Assembly (NCBI GenBank): GCA_963748825.1
Contig: CAVVKN010000003.1
Span: 66,552 to 130,551 of the forward strand
DNA: 64,000 bases
Source: Methanotrichaceae archaeon
Lineage (GTDB): Archaea; Halobacteriota; Methanosarcinia; Methanotrichales; Methanotrichaceae
Reading direction: 5' to 3'
The stretch's first letter is position 1. Each line of letters begins with the position of its first letter. Shown in pieces: positions 18,421-62,950 of the stretch. A program made the position numbers and the translations under genes. Under the pieces are notes generated by a model. It was given only the letters and a program-made list of their open reading frames with translations, ran no database searches and had not been told where the DNA came from.

Positions 18421-18937
18421 ATCATTTTCTTGGCTATTTCTTTTGGGGTGGAGATGGTCTTTTCTAACTTGAAGCGAAAGCCTTTTATCTCGGCAATTGA
18501 CGTATGGTATATTGGCGAAAGTCGATGGCAGTTTTTCCCCTCCTACATCCAATTGACTTTCTCCTCCCACCTTCTTATTCATCAAACGCTTTCATAAGGG
18601 CCTAAAGCATCCTGCCTCAGCTTTCTAAAAGAAAGACTTATAGCCTGACTCGTCCTTCATTCCTTCAAGAACGCCAGCCATAAGGAGAAGAGGCAATTAA
18701 GTCGGAGCGATGAGGCTTGAGGACTGGCCAGGCCCGCAGCTCCATTTATCTCATTCAGCATAATCGATTTTATGGGCTCGCTGCAGGTTGTACGCACCGC
18801 CTCATACAACAGCTCGGTATGATGAAAAACGGCTAAAAGAGCTCTTTGAGCTAAGTCGTCATTTCATAGTTTATAGGCATAAAACAAAATCCTCTCTGCT
18901 ATTGATCTAATCAATATGCCCCGACATAAATTTGTAA

Positions 18938-20586
18938 CCTGACCTCCCCAAAGTTTAGGCACACATATGAAGTGCATCCAGGATTTCTCGCTGTTTCTTG
19001 GTAATCTCAGTTGTGATTTTCTCGCCATCCGGCAAGATCATTAGCTTGATCTTTTCTAGTTCAGTGAGCAGTCCTTCCACTGAATATCGTTTATTCAGCT
19101 CGGCATTGACCATGAGCCTGGTCAGCTTCATTCTTAAGATCAGAGCAAGAAAAGCGACGAACAGATAGCCACTCAAACTGTTATTGGTTCTTAGGTTTGT
19201 TGGCATCAGTTCAATGTCGTTCTTCAATACATCGAATCCTTTCTCGACGACATCCTTGCTTCTGTAAAGTGAAAGACAATCATTCCAAGAAAACTCGCCC
19301 CGATACAGCAGAATAAACTTACCCATCTTATTGATGGCCTGAGAGACGGCATTTTTTCTGAGGGAGACCTCAAATTTTCCGTCAATTGCTTTCCATTCGA
19401 TGAACTTGGCATCCTTTTTTGCCGTTTCCCTGAAAACCACACTCGGAATCATCCAGCTCTTTAAGGTCACAGCCTTGAGCCGTTCCATTAAATCGTATAG
19501 CCGCTTATAGAGAGTACTTCGTTCCAACTGCTCTCGCTTCTGATCGTAATATGCGTATCCTTTCAGCTTGTTTTTGCCTACCTCGATGTCCACAGGCATG
19601 ACAAAAAGCGGTTCTTTCTCGTAGAGTTCCAAATTCTCAGGATCATCGATGCTGCTATGGATGGCGGATATCGCCTCTTTGACATTTTTGAGAGTACTTG
19701 TTGGGGGGATGATGAACGACAAATCCGCTGAGACCATCTCATGGATATTGGCAGTCGAGAAGAAACCACGATCCATGATCATAGTATAATTCTGAACACC
19801 CAGGGCCTTTATTTTTTTGACTGTATTCGTGAGGGTAGTTACATCCGAGATGCTTCCTGGATATAGATCATACATTACCGGTATGCCTAGATCCTTGTCC
19901 ACAATCAGAGACAGGTTGATCTGAGGCAGATCGAGACCATCTCGATTATAACCGTATTCCAGTAGGCCTATGTTTTGAGAGTAAGAGGACAAAGAAGTGA
20001 TATCATAAACCAGAGTGCTGCATGTTGAGATTCTTTGGATTAGTCGATGAGCGAATTCCAGATTCGCGGTGCTCTCACCGATACGGCTTAGCATTCGAGA
20101 AAGGCTCTGAGAGGATAGGGGAAGATCAGGATGGTCTTCCGATAGAATTGTGCCTTCATACCAGCTTTGGATATGGGTTAATGCTCGGGGACGCAAAGCA
20201 AAATTCATAGCCAGAGTTAAAACAGGCCAGACTTCTTTGCTGGGCAAGACTCCAGAGAGAATTTCGTCTAGTTTAAGGTCTTCTGTTATCTTTTTCAGTG
20301 GAACGAATTCGCCATGTGATAGAACTTTCTTTGGTATTTTTCCCTGAGATCGGACCTTGACAGGAACTCCATTAACATTCTTGCCGAGGTACTTGCTCTT
20401 CTGGCGAATTTTCTTCTTTTCTTTGTCGTAGTAAGGAGTGATTTTGTATATGTATTCAATTCCACTTATATTTTTTATTCGATTAAACGATTTCATGTGC
20501 ATATTTAGGCACATAATATTATTTATAGATTTCGGCTATAGATAACGAAAATTGTTTAAATATGCCTAAATCATGGGGAGGTCAGG
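18938..20586 (-). mobile_element. IS1634-family insertion sequence, complete
   Basis: TIRs CCTGACCTCCCCAaagTTTAGGCA / CCTGACCTCCCCAtgaTTTAGGCA; 6-bp target duplication TTGTAA at 18932-18937 and 20587-20592. Confidence 0.92.
18955..20514 (-). CDS. IS1634-family DDE transposase
   Basis: YDITSLSSY, GYNRDG, IMDRGF and YRSKDVVEKGFDVLK motifs; intact 519-aa ORF. Confidence 0.92.
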   Translation of the reverse strand: MCLNMHMKSFNRIKNISGIEYIYKITPYYDKEKKKIRQKSKYLGKNVNGVPVKVRSQGKIPKKVLSHGEFVPLKKITEDLKLDEILSGVLPSKEVWPVLTLAMNFALRPRALTHIQSWYEGTILSEDHPDLPLSSQSLSRMLSRIGESTANLEFAHRLIQRISTCSTLVYDITSLSSYSQNIGLLEYGYNRDGLDLPQINLSLIVDKDLGIPVMYDLYPGSISDVTTLTNTVKKIKALGVQNYTMIMDRGFFSTANIHEMVSADLSFIIPPTSTLKNVKEAISAIHSSIDDPENLELYEKEPLFVMPVDIEVGKNKLKGYAYYDQKREQLERSTLYKRLYDLMERLKAVTLKSWMIPSVVFRETAKKDAKFIEWKAIDGKFEVSLRKNAVSQAINKMGKFILLYRGEFSWNDCLSLYRSKDVVEKGFDVLKNDIELMPTNLRTNNSLSGYLFVAFLALILRMKLTRLMVNAELNKRYSVEGLLTELEKIKLMILPDGEKITTEITKKQREILDALHMCA

Positions 20587-20802
20587 TTGTAAGCCTATTT
20601 TCCATAGCGCACTATCAGGGAGTTTGAGCCGGGAAGTATCCTTATAATAATATCTCGTGGTTTAATGGATATCGAAAAAAAAGAAAGATGGATTACAGGT
20701 TGCACATACTACGAAGAACTGGAATCTGTTCGTATATCCCAGTTCCTCAGCCTTGGCAAAGGCCTGCATCGCTTCTAAGATTGCTCATAAATGGTACTAT
20801 CT

Positions 20803-21525
20803 CTATGCCCAGCCCTGCTCCTTTAGCACATTTGATGCAGCATCTCGGATGTAGCTATCCTTGTCCTCCTTGGAAGCCTGGATCAATGGATCAGCTGCTC
20901 GAGCATCATTGATTTTTCCAAGAGCCCCAGCAGCCCAATATCTAACGCTTTTATAATCATCCTTCAGCGCCTGTATGAGCGGATCTACAGCACGGCTATC
21001 TTTGATATTTCCCAGAGCTTCCGCAGACTGATATCTTACGCGGGGGTCTTCGTCCTTCAAAGCCTGAATCAATGGCTCGACTGCTTTTTCACTCCCGATC
21101 TTTCCAAGAGCCCCAGCAGCTCTAGCTCGGACAGAACTATTAGCATCATTCAGAGATTGTATCAGCGGATCCACAGCTCCAGAATCATTCAGCTCCCCAA
21201 GAGCCAACGCCGCAGAACCTCGAACTTCCCAATTTGGATCATTCAAGGCTTGAATCAATGGATCAACAGCACGGTCATCTTTGATCCATCCCAGAGCTTT
21301 CGCAGACTCCGATCGAACAGAGCTATTGTCATCCTTAAGGGCCTGGATTAAAGGCTCAACAGCACTGACATCATTTAGCTCGCCGAGAGTCATTGCCGCA
21401 TCTACTCGGGTAATGCTATTTTCGTTTTTGAGGGCCTGAATACTCTGATCAACGTTTTCAGCTAAAACTGGCGTTGCGAACACCATTAGGATAAACGCAA
21501 ATACAATGGTCAATTCACATCTCAC
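20803..21525 (-). CDS. Secreted HEAT / PBS-lyase repeat protein
   Basis: Signal peptide followed by about seven 31-aa repeats (VR..AA.ALG.I.D..AVDPLIQALKD). Confidence 0.9.
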   Translation of the reverse strand: MRCELTIVFAFILMVFATPVLAENVDQSIQALKNENSITRVDAAMTLGELNDVSAVEPLIQALKDDNSSVRSESAKALGWIKDDRAVDPLIQALNDPNWEVRGSAALALGELNDSGAVDPLIQSLNDANSSVRARAAGALGKIGSEKAVEPLIQALKDEDPRVRYQSAEALGNIKDSRAVDPLIQALKDDYKSVRYWAAGALGKINDARAADPLIQASKEDKDSYIRDAASNVLKEQGWA

Positions 21526-46971: not shown

Positions 46972-47892
46972 GTGTTGAATTTGCAGGCAGGACAGTTGCT
47001 AAGATGCCTCATGGCGCTTCTGCTGGTAAGCTGTGCCTTTCCCAATCTTGCCCAGGAGGCCACGGCCTATCCCCTGGAGGCGGCTGGCACCTGGCCCCAG
47101 GATCAGCTGAGCCTAATTGCAGAGAGGATTGGCCTTAGAGGCGATGCTGAGATGGGGCAGGCCATGCTGGCCAAGCCTGATGAGGTCGGCAGCGGCGACA
47201 TCATACTGGATGTGAGCGATGGTGCCGACGCCTACATCCCCCGTGCCGTCCACATCAACTACACCGCGCTAAGCGGCGAGAATAAAACCCTCAAGCCGCC
47301 TGAGGATCTGGCCGAGATCTTCGGGAACGCTGGCATATCGGATAAGGACTCTGTGGTCATCTACGGCGAATGCGAACCCTGCGGAGGATCCGGTGTCACT
47401 TTGCATCCCTCCACCTACACCTACTTCGCCCTGCTCTCCCTGGGCCATCAGAATCTCCGGATGCTCGATGGTGGCCTGAAGGGCTGGATTGCTGCAGGAA
47501 AGCCCACGACCGGGAATCTTTCCACCAGGCCTGCCGTTCGCTACATCCCTTATCCCCGGCGGGATCTGCAAGCTTCCATCAGTTACGTCAAAGAGAATGC
47601 GGTGCAGCTTGTCGACGCCAGAACCATCAGCGAGTTTGGGGTGTCATCCATTCCTGGTTCGGTAAATATACCTGCTGATAGGGTGGCTGTGAACAGCAGC
47701 TTTTGCAGTGATGAAGAGCTGGAGATGCTCTTTAATGGACTGAGCAAAGACAAGCCCGTGGTGGTCTATACTGCCACGGGCCTGAAGGCCTCAGTTGTCT
47801 GGTTCGCCCTGGAGAAGATGGGGTATCAGGCAAAGCTCTTCGTCTTGGGAGAATGGGCGAGAGACAATCAGCCCCTGGTGAAGCCGAACTAA
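46972..47892 (+). CDS. Secreted tandem rhodanese-domain (sulfurtransferase-like) protein
   Basis: YIPRAVHI, SVVIYG, MLDGGLKGW, LVDART..EF...IPGSVNIP; N-terminal hydrophobic signal. Confidence 0.82.
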   Translation: MLNLQAGQLLRCLMALLLVSCAFPNLAQEATAYPLEAAGTWPQDQLSLIAERIGLRGDAEMGQAMLAKPDEVGSGDIILDVSDGADAYIPRAVHINYTALSGENKTLKPPEDLAEIFGNAGISDKDSVVIYGECEPCGGSGVTLHPSTYTYFALLSLGHQNLRMLDGGLKGWIAAGKPTTGNLSTRPAVRYIPYPRRDLQASISYVKENAVQLVDARTISEFGVSSIPGSVNIPADRVAVNSSFCSDEELEMLFNGLSKDKPVVVYTATGLKASVVWFALEKMGYQAKLFVLGEWARDNQPLVKPN

Positions 47893-54034: not shown

Positions 54035-54637
54035 ATGAAACTCAAAATTGTGATCCATGGTCCTAAGGTCCACAATGTAGGATATCGCTATTTCCTGCTT
54101 AACGATGCTGATAATCTTGGCCTGAAGGGTTTCTCGGCACGAAATATGAAAGCGAATGGCCAGCAGGTAGTGCAAATCTTTGTGGAGGGAGATGAGAACC
54201 AGGTCTCCGAATTCCAGGAGATCGTAAAAACCCAGCAGCCAAAAGCCGCAGAGGTCGCCGACGTAACCTTGGAGGATTATCCGGATCGCGTGGAAAGCTT
54301 ATCGAGATTCTCTTTTCGATTTCAGTCTCTGCAGGTCAGCAAGGGTATTGAATCAATTTTGAGGATAGAGAAGTTGCAGGAGACCATGCTGGAGAAACAA
54401 GATCAAATGCTTGGTAAGCAGGATCAAATGCTCGACAAGCTGGAGAATGTTCGACTTGATATTGTCGATGAAATCCGAACGTCCTCAGAATCCCACATTT
54501 CTGAAATGAAGAATGCCGGGGAACGGAATGCCGTGGATTTGCGAGATTCACATGCCGACCTGAAGTCTTATCTCGATGACTAGACTGGGCAAGATTGAGG
54601 TGGATATTTCTCGCATCAAAGCCAGGATCGGCATGTA
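54035..54637 (+). CDS. Acylphosphatase-domain protein with QDQMLxK heptad tail (frameshift at ~54580)
   Basis: GPKVHNVGYR...ARN; the tail ends RIKARIGM in a shifted frame, as in the paralog at 61263. Confidence 0.8.
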
Positions 54638-54662
54638 AAATAGGCTCTTCGCTATTTCCAAT

Positions 54663-55110
54663 TACTATGGTTTTCCAGTTGTTAGTTAGTCGCTCTGTGC
54701 GTTCTCTGTGAGCTCCGTGTCTCTGTGGTGAAAATCGTAAGCCGTAGGGTTTAATCCACATGATCGATGATTATAACCAGGGGTTTACGAGAATAAAACC
54801 GCAGAGCCGCAGAGCGCACGGAGGACGAGCGGACGGAGACGACTATTACTCAGGAAGCAAATATGCCATTCTAATTTCAAGTGCTCATAATAAGGAAAAT
54901 GGCACGTCTCTGCGAACTCTGCGTCTCTGCGGTTAATAATCGTAGCTGAATAATTAAGACTCAGGTTTTCGAATCAGCTAAATCGTCTCTGTGCGTACTC
55001 TGTGAACTCTGTGTCTCTGTGGTGGAATTAGTCGTTAGCCACTGGTTATAACCTAATGGCTACGGACTACCACCACCGCAGACACAGAGCGCACGGAGGA
55101 CTCACAGAGG
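54663..55110. repeat. Cluster of five ACCRCAGAG/CTCTGYGGT multimer repeats in alternating orientation
   Basis: Units at 54693-54729, 54797-54823, 54907-54934, 54986-55023 and 55072-55109. Confidence 0.85.
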
Positions 55111-55148
55111 ACTCGATTATTATATTAATATACAAGGCGCAACAAGCA

Positions 55149-56237
55149 CTACATCTGCATTGTTTTCTTCATCTTTTCCAGGAATATAGACGTATCGAAA
55201 TCTGCAGCACGCTTCTTGCATGCGTCTTTATATTTCTGCGGGTCTTTGGAGATCTCCTTTACCGCTCTCACCAGTTCGTCTCTGTCAGCCTCTACGAGAA
55301 GTCCCGTCTTGCCGTGCACTACTGTCTCCTTAAAGCCGCCTTCATTCACTGCCACCACAGGCTTGCCGCTGGCCATGGCCTCAATCGGCGTCAGCCCGAA
55401 ATCCTCATCCAGCGCTGTGCATATCAGGCCCTTGCACTTTGCATACAGCTCCATCAACTCCTCTTCGGAGACTGCGCCGCGCATCTCTACGTTGCTCGGG
55501 ATGTTCTTGATCAGCTTTTCATAGTATTTGGCAGCATGATCCCCCTCTGCATACCCGCCGATAATAACCAGCCTCTCCTCCGGCAGCTCCCTGAAGACCT
55601 CAAACTGCAGATCAATCCTCTTCTCAGGATAGATTCTGTTCACCGAGAGCCAGAAGTCGCCGTACTCCTTGAATTGGAACCTTTTGGTATCCACGGGCGG
55701 ATAGATTATTTCTGAGGATCTGCCGTGGAAATCCTTAATGCGTCGCTGCACAGTCTCGCTGATCGCAACCACCCTGTCCAGGTTTCGCACCGAGCGCTGA
55801 TCAAACCAGCTATGAGCTCTTATCCACGAAGCCGCCAGGAATTTCATGGCCGCGTTGGGCTGCCTGGAGATCATGGACTCTTTCAGATCGTAAAAGGCCC
55901 TCACCGGTGTGTAGCAGTACCACAGGTTGGGATGATGCTTTCCGGCTGCGTAATGTGACCAATTGCCCGAGAATATGAAAAAGTCATATTCCTGGGAAAA
56001 GTCGCATTTGGCAAATAAAAATGATGCAGAGATCTGCTTGAAGGGCGGCAGCTTCACGGTCTTGCCGAGACTTCTTATCCTGACATCCCCGTACCCCAGC
56101 CGCTGCACCGCCTCCAGGCTCACATCTGTGGTTATGATATCAGCCTGCAGAGCGCGGGCCAGCATGAGGGCAACTCGCTCCCCCCCGCCGATCGCTCCAA
56201 TGTAGTCCAGGAAGATGGCCGTCCGCAGCGCTCTCAC
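55149..56237 (-). CDS. GT4 glycosyltransferase
   Basis: [35 protein letters not shown]. Confidence 0.92.
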
Positions 56238-56238
56238 C

Positions 56239-57486
56239 TCAGTAGGATCCCTTGCGCTCTTTTTCTTCTAAATAGTGATCAAGCTGGTCTCTGATGATAT
56301 CTCTTACAGTGTGCTCTTTCTTAAACCCGAGCGCTTCAATCTTCTTCGTGTCTGAAAGGAGGATGGGAACCTCAGCCGGCCTGAATCTCTCTGGGTTGAA
56401 GATGATCCTTATGCTCTTTTCTCCAGTGTGAGCAATCACGCCTCCGTCTTCTAAATCAAACTCCAATTCCCCTCGCAGCATCATGCCGTCAACCTTTGTC
56501 TTCTCGAAATCAAGGCCGAAGATGGGCGAATTGTCAGGCTCGTTGGGCTGTGCTATGACCTTCTCTCCCTTGAAAGTCTCAATCTTGCTGACCGGATAGC
56601 CTGCTTCTTCAAGGCTCATCAGCAGATAACTCATCACGGAGTTAGTCCTCATGGAGCCCTGGTTGAACACGTCTCCGTACTTGCCCTTCTCTGCCAGGAG
56701 TATATAGCCGTTGATAATATCGTTTACATGGCTCCAGTCCCGTAAGGCGTTGACGTTTCCTATGGTGATTGAGTCGGATTCTCCAAACTTCATCTTCATA
56801 ACCTGGTTGGTGATCACGGAGGTCACGAACATATTGCCTCTGCCCGCTCCCTCATGGTTGAATGCCCTGGAGATGAGGGTCTTGACGCCATAAGAGTACC
56901 AGTAGTTCCTCATCAGAAAATCACCGTAAACTTTGCTTACTGCATAAGGAGACATAGGCCGGAGCGGATTCGTCTCAGCGATGGGCACTTCGGGCATCTG
57001 CACAGGTGCGGGGAATATTGTACCATATTTCTCCAAGGCCTTTTTGTGTTGTTCTTCCGAGGACAATACCAGGCCGTACTCCTCGCTGCTCCCTGCGAAT
57101 ACTACGATTGGATCTGCATCTTTGATCCTCACCGCCTCCAGGAGGTTCGAGGTTCCCCAGCAGTTGCAGAGCATGGTCTCATTTGGGTCCTCGAAAGATC
57201 GAGGCACAAACGATTGTGCGGCCAGATGGAAAATAATATCAGGCTCGCTGGCGGTGATGGCGCTCCCTATGCTCGATATGCTCTCCAGATCGCCTTCCAC
57301 CAGCCGTATCTCTTTTCCTAGACCAAGACGCAACATGTTGTGGGGCACTTTGCCATCCGCCCGGCGGCGCAGCAAGCCAAAGACATTCGCGCCTTCCTCT
57401 ACCAGCTGTTTGGCCATCCGTGACCCGACGAACCCGCTAATTCCTGTTATTAAAATATTTTTATCTTTAAGATCCAAGGATCCCAC
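56239..57486 (-). CDS. gmd: GDP-mannose 4,6-dehydratase family
   Basis: [42 protein letters not shown]. Confidence 0.85.
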
Positions 57487-57490
57487 CGCC

Positions 57491-58396
57491 TTATTTTACA
57501 TAGAATCGAAGGAGCTCTTTTACCCCTTCCTCCAGGTTGTATCTTGCCTTAAATCCGAGCACTTTCTCTGCCTTAGCAGTGTCGGAAAGGGTGTGCTGAA
57601 CATAGTTCTTTATGGGATTCTCCACGTGTTGCGGCTTCAAGGCCAACCCCATGTTCCTGTTCAAAATCTCTACGGTTTGGTTGAATGTGTAGGCCTTTCC
57701 CGTCCCCACATTCAGAATGCCGTGATAGTCCGACTTCATGGCCAGCTGCAGGGCACGCGTCACGTCTTTGACATAGGTGAAATCCCTGGTCTGCAAGCCG
57801 TCTCCGAAGATCACAGGTGCTTTGCCGTCCCGCATTTCCCAGAGGAACTGAGTAACCATATTTGCATATTGCTTCTTGGCTGTCTCCTTCGGCCCGTAAA
57901 CGGAGAAGAACCTCATGCCCACAGAGTCGACGTCGTAGAGCTGCCTGTAAAGCTCAGCCATCCTCTCCATGGCCAGCCGGGCTTCTGTGTAGTAATCGGC
58001 TACCTTAATGGTCATGTCCTCGCGATGGGGCGGCAGGAGGCCGTTGTAGAGTGAAGAAGATGAGGCATAAACTACTCTTGCCCCTGACTTTCTGGCCAGC
58101 TCGAAGACGGCCGTGAAGCCGTTGAGCGCTTCTCCCACCAGGTAAGGATTCTTCTTGTACATGGGCGATGAGGATGGAATGCCCAGATGGTAGATCTTCT
58201 CAGGATGAAGGTCCATGCCCGGCAACTCGTTGCAGCTCGCCCGGATCAGCTTCAGGCTGTCCTTCAGGTTTTCTAAGTTAGAGGGGCTTCCTGTGTGCAT
58301 GTTGTCCAGCACTATAACTTCTTCCCCTGCTGCCAATAGCTCTTCCACCAGGTTGGAGCCTATGAATCCTGCGCCGCCCGTTACAAGTATGCTCAA
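57491..58396 (-). CDS. NAD-dependent epimerase/dehydratase
   Basis: TGGAGFIGS, ASSSSLY, RFFSVYG, QTRDFTYV. Confidence 0.9.
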   Translation of the reverse strand: MSILVTGGAGFIGSNLVEELLAAGEEVIVLDNMHTGSPSNLENLKDSLKLIRASCNELPGMDLHPEKIYHLGIPSSSPMYKKNPYLVGEALNGFTAVFELARKSGARVVYASSSSLYNGLLPPHREDMTIKVADYYTEARLAMERMAELYRQLYDVDSVGMRFFSVYGPKETAKKQYANMVTQFLWEMRDGKAPVIFGDGLQTRDFTYVKDVTRALQLAMKSDYHGILNVGTGKAYTFNQTVEILNRNMGLALKPQHVENPIKNYVQHTLSDTAKAEKVLGFKARYNLEEGVKELLRFYVK

Positions 58397-58569
58397 GTTG
58401 AGTCCTCCTATTAAATATGAAAACCATACATGGTTGAATTTTGGTGTAAGCTTTTTCTGAAGTTTGCCGGCGCTTATTTTTTCCCGACGTATTTAAGATT
58501 GATGCTGGTAATGCATTGAGGAATTGAGTCTTGAGTAGCTCATTTGCCTTTAAGAAGATGGATTAGAAC

Positions 58570-59343
58570 TCACGTTTTCCTGGATACTATCATGAAATCT
58601 TGAGATATGAGGGATAGCGGCGTTTTGCATAATAACTTATCTAATTTATATATTGTATGATGATTTTTATCGAATATGCTTTCTAAGGTGTGGCTGATCC
58701 TGTTTACCTGAGCAGGTATTACATGTTCCATAGAAAGATGATTGATCTCGAAGCCACAACTATTAACCAAATTTTTTATATCATGCCGGGAGTAAGTCCT
58801 TCCATGATGCCATAAACCCATTTTTTTGCTTAGATATTCAGACAAAGAATATTTATTCGGCAATTGAAATATTATATTGCATCCTCCACTTCGCAAGCAT
58901 CTATGAATCTCTTTCAGGAATGCCACGTCGCTATTGGCATGTTCCATGACTCCGAACGATACTATGACGTCGAAGCTTTCGGACGAGAATGGCAGAGCCG
59001 TCGCATCACATATACAAAACTTGCCGCCAAATTTTCTTAAATCTTTCCACGTAATGTGCTCACTCATATCTGCTCCGAGGATCTTTATGTCTTCGCGAAA
59101 AGATGCCAGCAATGCTGTAGTGTGGCCAAGACCGCAGCCAAGGTCCAGCACATCGGATTGTGGTAGAATAGTAGCATCTAGATACTCTACTTGCGTTATG
59201 TATCGCAGCCAATTCAAATCGCTCGTGACATGAAAAGTGAGGTCGGGGTAAATCTTTGCATGCCTCTGCATTATCTTCCTGATTTCGTTGATCGCTTGCT
59301 TGTTTTGGCAAGTCCGCTTTCTTTCCCAATCAGCCAAGTCCAT
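58570..59343 (-). CDS. Class I SAM-dependent methyltransferase
   Basis: VLDLGCGLG, DATALPF..ESFD, VMEH, EIHRCLRSGG. Confidence 0.88.
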   Translation of the reverse strand: MDLADWERKRTCQNKQAINEIRKIMQRHAKIYPDLTFHVTSDLNWLRYITQVEYLDATILPQSDVLDLGCGLGHTTALLASFREDIKILGADMSEHITWKDLRKFGGKFCICDATALPFSSESFDVIVSFGVMEHANSDVAFLKEIHRCLRSGGCNIIFQLPNKYSLSEYLSKKMGLWHHGRTYSRHDIKNLVNSCGFEINHLSMEHVIPAQVNRISHTLESIFDKNHHTIYKLDKLLCKTPLSLISQDFMIVSRKT

Positions 59344-59600
59344 CTCTCCTTAGCGTCTTCCACAGGATTGCGGATCTTATCCCATTTTCCGCCCATCCGG
59401 CTCCTGCTTCTTCTCACCGCCAGACGTTTTTCTACCCCATTTCTTCCCAATCTTTCAATTTTTCGATTCGCTTTGTGGGCGATGACTGCCCACAACTTGG
59501 ACCTCTCTTGCCCCCCTGGCTAAATATCGCCTGCTTTCAGGAGCTCCTCTGCCAAATCGGAGCCTATAAATCCCGCGCCGCCTGTAACCCGTGTGCTCAT
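59344..59600 (-). pseudogene. Internally deleted NAD-dependent epimerase remnant
   Basis: MSTRVTGGAGFIGSDLAEELLKAG followed by a stop, paralogous to the 58396 N-terminus. Confidence 0.65.
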
Positions 59601-59672
59601 AATTATCTGTTCCTCAAAATCCGCGATCTACTATATCCGTCTGTCGAAATTCCGCAGGGCACAATAATTTTA

Positions 59673-59960
59673 TTATTCCGTTATAAATATTAACCGCAGG
59701 GACGCAGAGGGCGCAGAGATGTGAAATTTACCTTATTACCAACACTAAAAAGGGACCGCATATTGCTTATGATCAATAGTCGTCTCCGTTCGTTTGTCCT
59801 CCGTGCGCTCTGCGACTCTGTGGTTCTATTCCGTAATCCCCCGGGTTTAATTATTCCGCTATGAATATTAAAGGCAGAGACGCAGAGACGTGAAATTTAC
59901 CTCTCGCCAACACTTGAACGGAACAGCATTCTTCTCCCGCCCGTCCTCCATGCGTCTCTC
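59673..59960. repeat. Inverted ~170-bp copy of the 54770-54940 element plus a degenerate tandem partial copy
   Basis: The reverse complement of 59690-59855 aligns along its length with 54770-54940; 59851-59960 repeats 59673-59810. Confidence 0.85.
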
Positions 59961-60223
59961 TAGCCAGGATTGTTCTCAAGTCATCTCCTCCTGCCTCTTC
60001 AGATGCCCAGTGCCTCCTTCCCCCTGTCCGTGATCCTTTACATGGGAATTTTGTCCTGGATTCGCAAGTTGATCCGTTGCATCTCTTAGCGGCCATAGCG
60101 AATGCAATTGATGAATCTTGGCAAAGAAGTTCCGACCGATGAGGGTTCCCTGGGCCCTTGTGCCCGGAAATGCCTTTGGCGGTCGATAGGATCATATACA
60201 AAGAACGTCGAATTTCTATCCGA

Positions 60224-60787
60224 ATGATGAAGCTCACCGCATACGTCTCCGGCAAAGTCCAGGAGGTCGGATATCGAGGCAGGGTCGTCGATATAGCCAA
60301 TGCGTTTGGCCTCAAGGGCATGATCGAGAACCAAAAGGATGGCCGTGTGAAGATAATAGCCGAGGGCGATGATGAAAAGCTCAAGTGGTTCGAGAGTGCC
60401 ATAAACATAAAGAACACCTTGATCTGTGTCTCGTCCATAGACAAGGAATACTCTCCAGCAAGCGGTGAGTTCGACGGATTCGGCAAGCTTGTGATCAAAG
60501 GCGAGACCGACACCCGCCTGGACATGGCAGCGGGCTATCTAAAAATTCTGATCTCCGCGGTCAACAATCTGAATGATAACCTGGGCGGCAAGATGGATCA
60601 GATGCTCGATCGGCAGGATCAAATGCTCGATAAGCAGGATCAAATGCTCGATAAGCAGGACGAGCTTTTGGTCGAAGTCAAGGATATGAATAGGAAGTTC
60701 GACAAGGTACTGGAAAAGGATATCGCTGAGTTGAAGAGCGATATGGCCGAGGTAAAAACTGCTCTGAGGGCAAAAGGAATTATCTGA
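60224..60787 (+). CDS. Acylphosphatase-domain protein with tandem QDQMLDK heptads
   Basis: SGKVQEVGYR...IEN...DGRVKIIAEG; 21-bp repeats at ~60596-60661. Confidence 0.85.
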   Translation: MMKLTAYVSGKVQEVGYRGRVVDIANAFGLKGMIENQKDGRVKIIAEGDDEKLKWFESAINIKNTLICVSSIDKEYSPASGEFDGFGKLVIKGETDTRLDMAAGYLKILISAVNNLNDNLGGKMDQMLDRQDQMLDKQDQMLDKQDELLVEVKDMNRKFDKVLEKDIAELKSDMAEVKTALRAKGII

Positions 60788-60808
60788 CTCGAGAGCAAAA
60801 AGGAACTG

Positions 60809-61247
60809 TCAGTCGAAGCTTATCACCGCGTTCAGGTCGCTTCTCGGAATCATCCACCCGTGCTCCAGCTTTCTGATCTTCAGCTTCTCTAGCGACTGCA
60901 CCAGCCTCTCCCGCGCTGCCGCAGCAGTTCCGTCATCTCGCAGCACCTTGCCCTCCAGGAGGGCATCCACCACGAAACAGGTCTTGGCAATGACCATGTC
61001 TTCCAGCTCTTCCGGGTTCATCCAGATGTCCTGAATGCGGGCCAAAGATCGGAAGGGCGGCAACTCGTCCCGTCTCTTCAGCTCCGGCAGGCCCGATGCC
61101 ACGACGATGAGATCGATATCGCTGTGCTCCTTGGCCTGGCCTCTGGCCAACCGAGCCGAAGAGGATGACGCTTTTAATATTAATATTATTATCAAATTTG
61201 CAGTCTTTCAGCCTGGCCAGATAGTTCTCTATCATCTCTTCAAACAT
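60809..61247 (-). CDS. Minimal nucleotidyltransferase (MNT antitoxin type), frameshift at ~61145
   Basis: Near-identical to 61964-62401; LFGSV.RG...SDIDL. Confidence 0.8.
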
Positions 61248-61262
61248 GCATCGATCCTTTAC

Positions 61263-61899
61263 TTACATGCCGATCCTGGCTTTAATTCGTGTGATATCCT
61301 CTTCCATCTTGCCCATCCGGTTAAGGTAAGACATCAGATCGGCAGGGAATCCCGCAATTCCATGCACTGCGCTCTCTGGATTCTCTAATCTCAGAGACGA
61401 TGGCATCGGTTGAGGATCGGACCTCCTCACTACATCCTCTAACTTATCGTAGTACGTTCTTGCTTTTCTCATTGATCCGTTTGCCAATCTCTGCTCTTGC
61501 TTTCCAAGCATCCCTTTAGCGCGCTCTATCATCCGATCTTGTCTTTCTTCTATTCTGATTATGGAGCTTATGCCTTTCCTCAGTTGTCTTGCCTGTAATC
61601 TAGCGGCAAAAACGTTAATGTCTTCTACCTCGTCCTCCATTCCTCAAAAGTGATGGCAGATATCACCGCTCTATCCGGTCTTTGCACTTGTACGATTTTT
61701 TGAAACTTTTCCACAGAGCCTCATTGCTCCCTCGAGGTAGAGCAATAACTGTCTGCAAGCCCTCTTCTACCCTGTTTTGTGCAAAAAATCCCCGCATTCT
61801 CAGGTCTTCCGCGGCTTCCAGGAGAAATGCCCGGTAACCCACATCGTGGACCTTTGCACCGGATATCTTGAGCGTGAGCTTCACATCAATCGTCTCCAT
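61263..61899 (-). pseudogene. Third acylphosphatase-heptad paralog, frameshifted and degenerate
   Basis: GAKVHDVGYR...AQN in ORF 61663-61947; ERQDRMIE...MLGKQE...RIKARIGM in ORF 61263-61640. Confidence 0.75.
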
Positions 61900-61963
61900 A
61901 TGTTTTTCGGCGGCTGAGATGATATAATTTATGTCCGCGGTGCGCAAGTGAAAAGCATCCTCA

Positions 61964-62401
61964 TCAATCGAAGCTTATCACCGCGTTCAGATCCTTTCGC
62001 GGAATCATCCACCCGTGCTCCAGCTTCCGGATCTTCAGCCTCTCTAGCGACTGCACCAGCCTCTCTCGCGCTGCCGCAGCAGTTCCGTCATCTCGCAGCA
62101 CCTTGCCCTCCAGGAGGGCATCTACCACGAAACAGGTCTTGGCAATGACCATGTCTTCCAGCTCTTCCGGGGTCATCCAGATGTCCTGAATGCGGGCCAA
62201 AGATCGGAAGGGCGGCAACTCGTCCCGTCTCTTCAGCTCCGGCAGGCCCGATGCCACGACGATGAGATCGATATCGCTGTGCTCCTTGGCCTGGCCCCGG
62301 GCAACCGAACCGAAGAGGACGACGCTTTTAATATTAATATTATTATCAAATTCGCAGTCTTTCAGCCTGGCCAGATAGTTCTCTATCATCTCTTCAAACA
62401 T
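61964..62401 (-). CDS. Minimal nucleotidyltransferase (MNT)
   Basis: VVLFGSVARGQAKEHSDIDLIVV motif. Confidence 0.88.
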   Translation of the reverse strand: MFEEMIENYLARLKDCEFDNNINIKSVVLFGSVARGQAKEHSDIDLIVVASGLPELKRRDELPPFRSLARIQDIWMTPEELEDMVIAKTCFVVDALLEGKVLRDDGTAAAARERLVQSLERLKIRKLEHGWMIPRKDLNAVISFD

Positions 62402-62786
62402 GGGTCCATCCTCACCAGGACGCTTTCCAGCTCCTTTGCGCCAAGCGTCGAGTAGAAGCTGTGAGCTGCAGCCAAAACCGTCTTTGATCTGCCCATTATC
62501 TCACTTGCTTTCTCTTCGTCGTAAATCTCCGAAGGCTTGATGATTCGGTCTCTTGTCTCCCAGCCATAGCGGGGCATGCTTCGCTGCTTTTCGATTGAGG
62601 CTGCATTGTCTGCCATAGCCAGCAGAAATCCAATCTGGTCTCTTGAAAGAGTCAGATCTCGCGTCGTCTCTGGATTGTTCAATACTTCCCCCACCAGCTG
62701 GTCCGATGGAAAATGCGTTTTTTCATGAAAGACTCCAAAGAAGTACAGGACTGATTTTAGAAGTTTTTCTGCACATTGCTGCTGTG
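62386..62786 (-). pseudogene. HEPN-domain protein lacking its N-terminus
   Basis: In frame upstream of ORF 62386-62694: AQQQCAEKLLKSVL...EKTH, then PRY; overlaps the MNT start. Confidence 0.72.
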
Positions 62787-62850
62787 CTCCTTGGCCTGGC
62801 CCCGCGCCACCGATCCGAAGAGGATGACGCTCTTAATATCAATATTATGG
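62786..62850 (-). pseudogene. Short third MNT fragment
   Basis: INIKSVILFGSV..GQAKEHS coding sequence, fused to the HEPN and cut off by the repeat upstream. Confidence 0.7.
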
Positions 62851-62950
62851 CTCTTTCCAGTTGTTAGTTAGTCGCTCTGTGCGTACTCTGTGAACTCTGT
62901 GTCTCTGTGGTTGAAACGTCGTTAGATACTGGTTACAACCAATGGCTGAC
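62845..62950. repeat. CTCTGTG-multimer repeat; composite of 54663-54730 and 54986-55065
   Basis: ttccagttgttagttagtcgctctgtgcg matches 54673 onward; gtcgttag..actggtta.aacc.aatggct matches 55031 onward. Confidence 0.85.

Follow-up and report, generated by a model that had tools for sequence, protein, structure and literature searches.

Integron attC sites, which are imperfect palindromes, separate small cargo genes that have no promoter, toxin–antitoxin pairs included. The repeats analysed here, from a glycan locus of a methane-producing Methanotrichaceae archaeon, resemble them as imperfect palindromes between small cargo genes. Unlike attC sites, they are built of heptamer arrays and dispersed singly; RYYYAAC/GTTRRRY core sites were absent by eye, and the repeats have no linked integron integrase. 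Like MITEs, they are small, non-coding and intergenic, and one subfamily (A-type) has terminal inverted repeats (TIRs), A/T-rich insertion sites and presence/absence polymorphism. Unlike in MITEs, no clear target-site duplication was seen, B-type copies lack terminal repeats, and TIR pairs up to 420 bp apart revealed no cognate insertion sequence sharing these ends.

A further described system is that of REP/REPIN elements with their RAYT (Y1 HUH) transposase (Bertels and Rainey 2011, PMC3116915). Our repeats share with REPINs the short, inverted-paired repeats that form hairpins, and the extragenic dispersal with clusters and tandem forms. Shared with REPIN/RAYT are also repeats that far outnumber a single-copy enzyme gene, itself flanked by repeats, and the existence of several repeat groups, each paired with its own enzyme variant. 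The differences lie in the linked enzyme, here a PD-(D/E)XK protein of ~120 aa (GxxExxY) and not a tyrosine HUH transposase; in the arm, made of 3–4 phased heptamers instead of one REP palindrome; and in the gene, which here can sit inside the hairpin loop. No RAYT gene flanked by repeats was found in the focal genome, whose sole Y1_Tnp match (PF01797) is broken by stops and lies in a locus free of arms.

We propose, with a probability of roughly 0.6, that the units of this locus are gene-less copies of a dispersed hairpin family homologous to cassettes carrying a GxxExxY nuclease gene. The GxxExxY family is given as ‘Unknown’ in a 2012 survey (PMC3424549), and we found no published description of a pairing between such a repeat and this enzyme.

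Arms and clusters in the window

The window (the whole stretch of DNA analysed, 64,000 nucleotides) contains, as read from its sequence, nine arms of 3–4 CTCTGYG blocks ending in GGT. They are grouped into cluster I (54.64–55.11 kb; arms at 54693+, 54797−, 54905+, 54987+ and 55074−), cluster II (59.69–59.89 kb; 59692−, 59796+ and a degenerate arm at 59873−) and cluster III (62.85–62.95 kb; 62875+). The initial annotation had described these units, their number, their clustering and their GGT ends correctly; of its ~9-bp spacing, the phasing of the blocks stood but the flat period did not, the measured phase within arms being 8–11 bp. The arms fit a scheme of at least 3 C-R-C-N-R-A-G heptamers in helical phase, with ACC/GGT at the end. 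The window contains CTCTGYGGT 7 times versus 0.75 expected, a count reached in 0 of 100 shuffles, and a two-block pattern matched 10 times versus 1.62 expected. The CTCTGYGGT match at 47349, inside a rhodanese gene, and the two-block matches at 21011 and 21290, inside a HEAT-repeat gene, were rejected as chance.

The first part of cluster I is the left-hand outer module of an A-type element (54643–54692, plus strand). This module starts with GGCTCTTCGC, the terminal inverted repeat, and also opens the C10:171.1 kb insert, missing from six relatives. A y-type arm follows (54693–54730, plus strand; four CTCTGYG/CTCCGTG blocks and a GGT end), then the palindromic loop of a first, hybrid hairpin (54731–54796) and an x-type arm in reverse complement with the outer flank GACGAGCGGACGGAGACGAC (54797–54843, minus strand); the fold of 54690–54838 has an energy of −30.5 kcal/mol (z −4.1). 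From this x-arm a conserved spacer (54844–54904), found again inverted at 59723–59795 and also in another genus (L003), leads to a B-type y-arm of CTCTGCG blocks followed by GGTTAATAATCGTAGC (54905–54934, plus strand). In the sister genome G088, this arm and loop half are found again at the border of the GxxExxY gene. The last element is a complete A-type hairpin (54987–55112, plus strand), composed of a y-arm (54987–55024), a loop (55025–55073) and an x-arm (55074–55112), with a folding energy of −38.8 kcal/mol (z −7.7, equalled in 0 of 200 shuffles) and an nhmmer score of 174.6 bits.

Cluster II begins with a y-type arm in reverse complement (59692–59722, minus strand), placed directly after ancestral intergenic sequence that G051 also has, and continues with an x-type arm (59796–59825, plus strand) and a loop with the degenerate reverse-complement y-arm (59826–59893). 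The ~170-bp element of cluster I was said to recur inverted at 59690–59855, and it does so at 74% (54750–54852 versus 59770–59872) and 78% (54875–54957 versus 59669–59751) identity. The further partial tandem copy, formed by the loop and degenerate arm, was likewise recovered, with repeats of 86% (59668–59709 versus 59846–59887) and 95% (59712–59733 versus 59881–59902). Cluster III is a truncated A-type element (62854–62950, plus strand) with part of the outer module, a y-arm (62875–62912) and the left loop half, and without a right arm. Since 62854–62916 matches 54672–54733 at 93.7% and 62875–62947 matches 54987–55061 at 89.3%, the proposed relation, in which cluster III equals 54663–54730 joined to 54986–55065, holds as sequence. 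Mosaic elements with a duplicated arm, which flanks a ~255-bp insert, are present, and such mosaic clusters were probably made by recombination between arms.

Genome-wide distribution and age of the copies

Across the focal genome, 59 of 64 merged arm loci were kept, all of them intergenic, with an ORF of at least 120 aa spanning 0 of the 59. Most are solitary and lie between genes of ordinary size and orientation, with no bias to gene ends or gene orientation; genome-wide, 80 arms fall into 49 clusters. Exact triple phased arrays number 20 for CACAGAG and 14 for CGCAGAG, versus 0 in a shuffled genome. The units are dispersed over the genome and not special to the glycan locus. The alternative of a MITE/REP-like family given in the initial annotation holds: the 59 intergenic loci form hairpins and are absent at the orthologous sites of relatives. 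Pattern matches per genome range from 0 to 114 within this one genus, several near-complete genomes having 0, and the focal genome, with 60, is among the highest. Several copies in G059 are located at contig ends.

Two inverted arms and a palindromic loop make a hairpin of 125–160 bp, and inverted arm pairs fold with z scores of −7.7 and −8.4 (A-type), −4.1 and −5.1. In the A subfamily, added outer modules with GGCTCTTCGC terminal inverted repeats produce a foldback element of ~260 bp, whose TIR pair (GGCTCTTCGC / GCGAAGAGCC) extends to about 25 nt; B-type copies have no such repeats. The TIR 10-mer occurs 35 times versus 5.9 expected, about half of the occurrences within 100 bp of arm loci. 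A-runs border both sides of three full-length copies, and flanks are simply A-rich; a clean target-site duplication was not found at the sites examined, and the C10 site has a diverged duplication of ~14 nt.

Could A-type copies be classical MITEs of a DDE insertion sequence sharing the GGCTCTTCGC ends, with the heptamer arrays as passengers and the GxxExxY association as a by-product of shared hot spots? The TIRs of about 25 nt, the small size, the lack of an ORF, the A/T-rich sites and the presence/absence polymorphism agree with this. However, no partner with GGCTCTTCGC ends was seen among TIR pairs up to 420 bp apart, and within the same limit only one 337-bp copy in the focal genome and the fetched loci has a TIR pair with internal arms. 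The window does encode a DDE transposase (18936–20588), so that the earlier statement that it holds no recombinase was inaccurate, but the 26-bp ends of this insertion sequence are unrelated. B-type copies, without GGCTCTTCGC ends, are just as widely dispersed and surround the nuclease gene, and across phyla it is the arms that are common, not the TIRs. We regard the MITE explanation as improbable.

Comparison with relatives shows gain and loss of copies at orthologous sites. The copy at C10:171128–171292 is absent in 6 relatives, that at C9:220788 is absent in 2 and present in 1, and cluster I (54.64–55.15 kb) is missing from G089 and G103 as judged by sequence, and from G087, G102 and G036 as judged by coordinates. 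As these orthologous sites in sister genomes are empty, the copies are insertions, the whole of cluster I included. Pairs of A-type copies at least 95% identical amount to 0 of 56 in the focal genome and to 29 of 362, 16 of 91, 2 of 20 and 1 of 92 in four other genomes; the focal copies are the most diverged of the five. The focal assembly (94.9% complete, 25 contigs) contains no GxxExxY gene or remnant. With no gene found and the copies so diverged, those of the focal genome look like relics, most likely old and immobile.

Variation of the glycan locus

An acylphosphatase-like gene with a heptad-repeat tail (54035–54583, plus strand; PF00708, E 2e-15) adjoins cluster I. Between clusters I and II lies a block encoding a GT4 glycosyltransferase, a GDP-mannose dehydratase, an epimerase and a methyltransferase (55149–59343, minus strand), the first three genes of which are syntenic in relatives. 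Alignment to relatives identified a remnant of the original epimerase 5′ end with original intergenic sequence (59527–59680, minus strand). On this alignment, replacement of the epimerase end plus a methyltransferase explains the remnant, and no arm abuts it. A 3.3-kb cargo block (59681–62950), of which the cluster II y-arm is the left edge, is bracketed in the order ACC-arm … arm-GGT. Its cargo (60158–62848) comprises an acylphosphatase-heptad gene (plus strand), an MNT fragment, a second acylphosphatase-like gene (minus strand), an MntA-type gene, a 102-aa ORF and an MNT 5′ fragment. The acylphosphatase-heptad and MntA-type nucleotidyltransferase genes noted initially as cargo, and the truncated genes (epimerase remnant, MNT fragment), were borne out, but the supposed HEPN partner was not: the 102-aa ORF (62386–62694) matched no family. 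The glycan-locus copies occupy two intergenic hot spots beside toxin–antitoxin and acylphosphatase-heptad genes, which also differ between relatives.

The main reading of the initial annotation was that the arms are site-specific recombination sites, analogous to attC, at which a trans-acting recombinase inserts, excises or inverts gene cassettes in surface-glycan and toxin–antitoxin islands. Locally, several observations agree: the cargo block with arms on both sides, the mosaic elements and the duplicated arm around the insert, and cluster edges that match breakpoints relative to relatives and, at the edges of cluster I, to contigs of a related strain. Moreover, at C21, C18 and C25 small genes such as HicAB and acylphosphatase-heptad have an x-arm and a conserved leader in front of them, and arm-rich arrays occur in a cassette island of G049. 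As a general rule, however, cassette shuffling is not supported. The 59 loci are mostly solitary between ordinary genes, and seven orthologous glycan loci of relatives differ in cargo and lack arms, among them that of G042, which has an MNT cassette at site I. No integrase-type gene is linked, the window's only transposase has unrelated ends, the arms do not fit attC cores by eye, and the one ‘opposite strands’ joint does not establish an inversion, as its short side has only 37–77 letters and the contigs that contain it are metagenomic. We consider such a recombination system decidedly improbable; for the window, the repeats are better seen as old insertions than as a device that shuffles the glycan locus.

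That the arrays instead serve the host as phased protein-binding sites or structured RNA (terminator, insulator or small RNA) kept by selection is very improbable: the heptamers are helically phased, the hairpins strong, arrays persist in genomes without the nuclease gene and an RNA-library contig (54069–54717) extends from within the acylphosphatase gene as far as the first arm, but contigs cannot demonstrate transcription, copy number varies from 0 to 114 within the genus with none in several near-complete genomes, orthologous sites are empty in most relatives, the loci show no bias to gene ends or orientation, and Rfam gave nothing at gathering score, with sub-threshold microRNA-precursor hits only (34.6 bits versus 99; 24.9 versus 67). 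For annotation, the hairpins are markers of intergenic hot spots that vary, and short-read assemblies break at them.

Association with GxxExxY nuclease genes

The reading of the units as gene-less copies of nuclease cassettes is carried by sister Methanothrix-type genomes, in which these arms, together with their loop halves and outer flanks, surround a GxxExxY gene (PD-(D/E)XK, TIGR04256). In G088, the gene lies exactly between a B-type y-arm with GGTTAATAATCGTAG and GGTTTACGGAAATATAACC with an x-arm, and GGTTAATAATCGTAG and GGTTTACGGAAATATAACC are the two loop halves of the focal genome's gene-less B copies; arms, loop halves and flanks are likewise shared by L249. The statement in the initial annotation that similar motifs flank GxxExxY genes holds for sister genomes, whereas the four-helix-bundle family also named there (PF05635) is absent from the focal genome. 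PF13366 turned up in 17 of the 81 genomes of the family and in 2 of 5 additional ones, and phased heptamer arrays lie within about 700 bp of 17 of the 18 full-length GxxExxY loci in the family. Heptamer word and nuclease phylogeny agree: proteins adjoining CACAGAG arrays form one clade (support 0.94), and among metagenome relatives heptamer labels require 19 changes on the protein tree, whereas 300 shuffles averaged 28.3 and never fell below 23, although such clustering may arise through shared descent alone.

From these sequence associations, the nuclease may recognise the heptamer arrays or their hairpin, and by analogy with REPIN/RAYT or homing nucleases it could drive the copying of both cassettes and gene-less hairpins. 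If the nuclease acts on the arrays, this would be a repeat–enzyme partnership on a PD-(D/E)XK fold in both prokaryotic domains. It would stand beside the REPIN/RAYT and MITE/transposase pairs and offer a candidate DNA substrate for a large protein family. More tentatively, and at clearly less than even odds, GxxExxY nucleases and phased heptamer-array hairpins may jointly constitute a distinct enzyme-plus-repeat mobile class of Bacteria and Archaea. The heptamer word would then be a recognition code co-evolving with the nuclease. Like a homing nuclease gene, the GxxExxY gene would be carried in the loop or spacer of the target it acts on, while gene-less hairpins would be multiplied in trans and would persist as relics once the gene was lost. 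On this broader reading, the genus offers a natural experiment, its genomes having 0–114 copies in the presence or absence of the gene.

Gene and copy number are only loosely linked across genomes. In G090 (77% complete), there are 114 matches and young copies, but no gene was found in it, nor in G092 and G095; G045 carries the gene, of CACAAAG type, with 0 CTCTGYG arms. Arrays were present in 45 of 80 metagenome relatives, with none by the strict criterion in 35 of 80. Beyond the archaea, at least 122 bacterial stretches from many phyla contain this arm, and 4 of 80 of them have an adjacent GxxExxY ORF. Arm geometry around the gene is variable, being inverted, direct or one-sided, and the GGT ends point outward in the bacterial (metagenome) sample and towards the gene in G088.

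Phased heptamer arms and their hairpins

The initial annotation had described at least nine CTCTG(C/T)G units in three clusters, and sequence reading bore out this number. Nine arms were counted, each made of 3–4 CTCTGYG (or CTCCGTG) blocks in 8–11 bp phase and ending in GGT: 54693+, 54797−, 54905+, 54987+ and 55074− in the first cluster, 59692−, 59796+ and a degenerate 59873− in the second, and 62875+ in the third. The motif lies well above chance, with seven CTCTGYGGT sites in the window where 0.75 were expected, a count that none of 100 shuffles attained. A two-block pattern gave 10 matches against 1.62 expected. Of the matches to these patterns, those at 47349 (CTCTGYGGT), 21011 and 21290 (two-block) are intragenic and due to chance. 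The proposed relationships between clusters also held: 59669–59872 is an inverted form of 54750–54957 (74–78% identity), the second cluster contains a partial tandem copy (86–95%), and the third cluster pairs with two pieces of the first, on the left (54672–54733 with 62854–62916, 93.7%) and on the right (54987–55061 with 62875–62947, 89.3%).

The arms are of two kinds, y (CTCTGYGAACTCTGYGTCTCTGYGGT) and x (GTCCTCCGTGCGCTCTGYGNCTCTGYGGT), and a hairpin of 125–160 nt arises where a y-arm is joined through a palindromic loop to an inverted x-arm. Folded as single-stranded DNA, A-type hairpins reach −38.8 and −40.9 kcal/mol (z −7.7 and −8.4), and none of 200 shuffles folded as well. Two subfamilies were distinguished, A-type with mainly CTCTGTG and B-type with mainly CTCTGCG, and the first cluster (cluster I, 54.64–55.15 kb) is a mosaic of modules from both. 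Full-length A copies carry outer modules bounded by terminal inverted repeats, GGCTCTTCGC(TATT) and its complement (end pair GGCTCTTCGC...GCGAAGAGCC), for a total of ~260 bp. The terminal 10-mer GGCTCTTCGC occurs 35 times against 5.9 expected, about half of them no more than 100 bp away from an arm locus. In B-type copies the series x-arm, 65-nt spacer, y-arm, loop is repeated as a chain, and the spacer is conserved even in another genus. The choice of T or C in the heptamer is weakly correlated between the arms of a hairpin (r 0.29, n = 16 pairs), and we therefore make no claim of arm covariation. Rfam returned nothing above threshold for the window region and four other copies.

An x-arm also heads what resembles a portable upstream module, in which a conserved ~200-nt leader comes next, made up of a half-loop with TTATAATTATC and then a GC-rich stretch. 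This module, which has no Rfam match, is found at C21:61267, 62246 and 63485, C18:59110, 62042 and 62397, and C25:31294 and 33204 of the focal genome. The genes 3' of it differ and include HicB/HicA-like, acylphosphatase-heptad and PIN-type small genes.

Dispersal, gain and loss of copies

Simple block chaining over the focal assembly (G000; 2.88 Mb, 25 contigs, 94.9% complete) identified 80 arms in 49 clusters. Merging arms with profile searches gave 64 loci, of which five were dropped as two-block matches that no profile supported (three lie inside long ORFs), and none of the 59 loci kept is spanned by an ORF of at least 120 aa. Exact triple phased 7-mer arrays were found for CACAGAG (20), CGCAGAG (14), CGCGAAG (2) and CACAAAG (2), against zero in a shuffled genome. 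Flanks were compared across the 59 loci for gene size and orientation. Flanking genes are not small (33/113 below 150 aa beside loci vs 1017/2944 genome-wide), and the intergenic regions with copies are tandem in 34 cases, convergent in 13 and divergent in 12, against a background of 1227, 437 and 481. The link to the glycan locus drawn by the initial annotation stands only in part: copies do cluster there (3 loci in 8.3 kb of the window, compared with a genome average of 1.3 per 64 kb), but the family is dispersed over 59 loci genome-wide and is therefore no feature of the glycan locus.

Comparison with relatives revealed both occupied and empty sites. The A copy at C10:171128–171292 sits between two conserved genes and is absent from the orthologous site in six relatives (G090, G080, G057, G027, G094 and G065), where the anchors are 185–217 nt apart, with flanks 80–94% identical, vs 430 in G000. 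The copy at C9:220788 is absent from G080 and present in G051, and G094 has only an older CACAAAG half-arm. Cluster I (54640–55150) is absent from G089 and G103, in which the glycosyltransferase gene begins ~45 bp beyond the acylphosphatase gene. By coordinates it is also absent from G087, G102 and G036, and G027 and G051 lack both cluster I and the acylphosphatase gene. Target-site duplication was not established at the copies inspected, and their flanks are A-rich. We conclude that the copies are insertions.

A related element with the word CTTTGTG occupies, in G033 (L041), the same site as the C10 copy. CTTTGTG/CACAAAG-word elements lie at the same sites as CTCTGTG elements of other genomes or directly beside them (C10:171.1 kb, C9:220.75 kb). 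Such variant-word elements suggest repeated insertion at the same spots or beside existing arms.

Pairs of A copies with at least 95% identity number 0/56 in G000 (best 93.3%), 29/362 in G090, 16/91 in G059 (many at contig ends), 2/20 in G067 and 1/92 in G088. We read the repeat family of the focal genome as quiescent relics. In G059, copies 100% identical over 121–126 nt lie at the ends of contigs C63, C72, C81 and C33 and at C37:1997–2122, so short-read assemblies break at this repeat; among the contig-end copies, some may be a single physical one.

Inserts in the glycan locus

The epimerase gene is separated from the last glycosyltransferase gene by 51–185 bp in relatives, ~1.35 kb in G089 and 4.7 kb in G000. 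Positions 59527–59680 hold the surviving 5' end of the original epimerase gene and the original intergenic sequence, and the working epimerase end and the methyltransferase gene are therefore a replacement. The order at 58397–59680 is working epimerase gene, methyltransferase gene, then the older epimerase 5' remnant with ancestral intergenic sequence. This replacement is typical of glycan loci and owes no visible debt to the arms, none of which abuts it. From 59681 to ~62950 the locus holds arms, two acylphosphatase-heptad genes, MntA-type genes and fragments, in a block edged by an ACC-arm on the left and by an arm with GGT and a half-loop on the right.

That the arms are cassette boundaries, as the initial annotation proposed, is true of some boundaries, but the exchange of cargo does not require them. 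No heptamer arms were found in seven orthologous loci of relatives (3.7–6.3 kb each), and in G042 site I holds an arm-free MNT cassette. Contigs of a related strain have their breakpoints at the edges of cluster I: 54636 is joined to 60799, and the glycosyltransferase block starts at 55157. The archived runs that matched were all contigs, and no run contained more than 0.39 of the search words; an opposite-strand joint, 54635|59906, with short sides (37 and 77), and the stretches without cover were not taken as evidence. Taken together, these observations mark the sites of this locus as hot spots that receive inserts of several kinds.

The MntA-type gene is duplicated (60809–61108 and 61964–62263, 300 nt at 96%), with a further 5' fragment at 62781–62848 (68 nt at 91%), and for an adjacent 102-aa ORF (62386–62694) neither Pfam nor NCBIfam gave a family. 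Proteins that combine an acylphosphatase-like part with a heptad-repeat tail (QDQMLDK-type) are multicopy (16 genome matches), with copies in the window at 54035–54583, 60158–60787 and 61263–61947 and elsewhere in G000 at C21:62324–63097, C2:86829–87302 and other places. Five of these genes are no farther than 500 bp from an arm locus, vs 122 of the 2944 ORF-called genes, though three of the five are in the window and so are not independent. The C21 copy is bracketed by arms. At 18936–20588 the window also carries an insertion sequence that encodes a 519-aa DDE_Tnp_1 transposase; its inverted ends (26 bp, 88% complementary) are unrelated to the arms.

The GxxExxY nuclease gene and the nature of the repeats

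Of the two gene associations named in the initial annotation, that with GxxExxY, a PD-(D/E)XK nuclease family, was recovered in sister genomes, where phased heptamer arrays lie no more than ~700 bp from the gene at 17 of the 18 full-length loci (words CACAGAG, CACAAAG, CGCGAAG and CGCTAAT); that with four-helix-bundle genes was not, PF05635 being absent from G000. The focal genome itself gave no PF13366 match, nor any GxxExxY remnant by tblastn. PF13366 matches occur in 17/81 genomes of the family and 9/34 of the genus. In G088 (L249) a B-type element has the gene (TIGR04256, E 6e-46) placed exactly in its loop, with a y-arm and GGTTAATAATCGTAG on one side and, on the other, GGTTTACGGAAATATAACC, an x-arm and the outer flank GACGAACGGACGGAGACGAC. 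The parts of this cassette are identical in kind to those of the gene-less B copies of G000.

The association extends beyond the sister genomes. Among 80 metagenome relatives (L254–L333), fetched with a profile of the family's GxxExxY proteins, 45 have arrays, 19 of them on both sides; for the 58 loci whose two flanks each span 300 bp or more, arrays are on both sides in 12, on one in 20 and on neither in 26. Proteins beside CACAGAG arrays form one clade (support 0.94). On the protein tree (51 labelled rows) the heptamer label changes 19 times, vs a mean of 28.3 and a minimum of 23 in 300 shuffles. The heptamer word is co-inherited with the protein, a clustering of labels that shared descent alone can produce. 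In bacteria, the exact arm pattern is present in at least 122 genome stretches from many phyla, and a GxxExxY ORF lies beside an arm at 4 of 80 fetched loci. Bacterial proteins near CACAGAG arms are 46–62% identical to archaeal ones; the archaeal CACAGAG and CACAAAG clades were not separated in this comparison, which was set aside.

Copy number and gene presence are loosely related. Genomes of the genus contain between 0 and 114 pattern matches, with zero for the reversed pattern everywhere; G000 has 60 matches and no gene, and G090 has 114 with none found (77% complete). The prediction that high-copy genomes carry the gene was not retained: it was found in two of five further ones, the misses being 62–77% complete. 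The idea that young copies occur only with the gene was likewise rejected, since copy age fits it only in part: no gene was found in G090 despite its young copies, and G088 has the gene with 1/92 pairs at 95% or above. Arm geometry around the gene varies among loci, and the ACC/GGT ends point outward from the gene in the metagenome sample, with GGT toward the gene in G088. The 3.3-kb cargo block of the window has the outward layout of the metagenome sample.

We rate the repeats of the window as real, ordinary selfish DNA that belongs to a wider, apparently undescribed system, in which the GxxExxY nuclease would recognize the arrays or the hairpin and promote their copying. A 2012 survey (PMC3424549) lists the function of PDDEXK_3 as unknown and notes that the family has been transferred many times between Bacteria and Archaea. 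Among the literature matches listed, GxxExxY is used as a gene name only, with no activity test found. The closest published analogue is REPIN/RAYT, as outlined in PMC3116915, but enzyme fold and arm design differ here, and the only Y1 transposase match in G000 is broken and without nearby arms. A-type copies resemble MITEs in being small and in having terminal repeats, but no cognate element was found among end pairs up to 420 bp apart, nor a clear target-site duplication. Literature searches gave, by title, nothing on Methanothrix repeats (Methanosaeta/Methanothrix MITEs) and, among the archaeal MITE matches listed, none combining the MITE phrase with 'Methanothrix'.

In relatives, acylphosphatase-heptad genes also lie beside GxxExxY genes (L003). 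A complete sister genome, G049, holds a 30-kb island packed with arms (C1:735–768 kb, L023 and L024) that contains two GxxExxY genes, toxin-antitoxin pairs, acylphosphatase-like genes, duplicated glycosyltransferase genes, a transposase and truncated 5' ends of UDP-GlcNAc 2-epimerase genes, and that mirrors the locus of the window on a larger scale.
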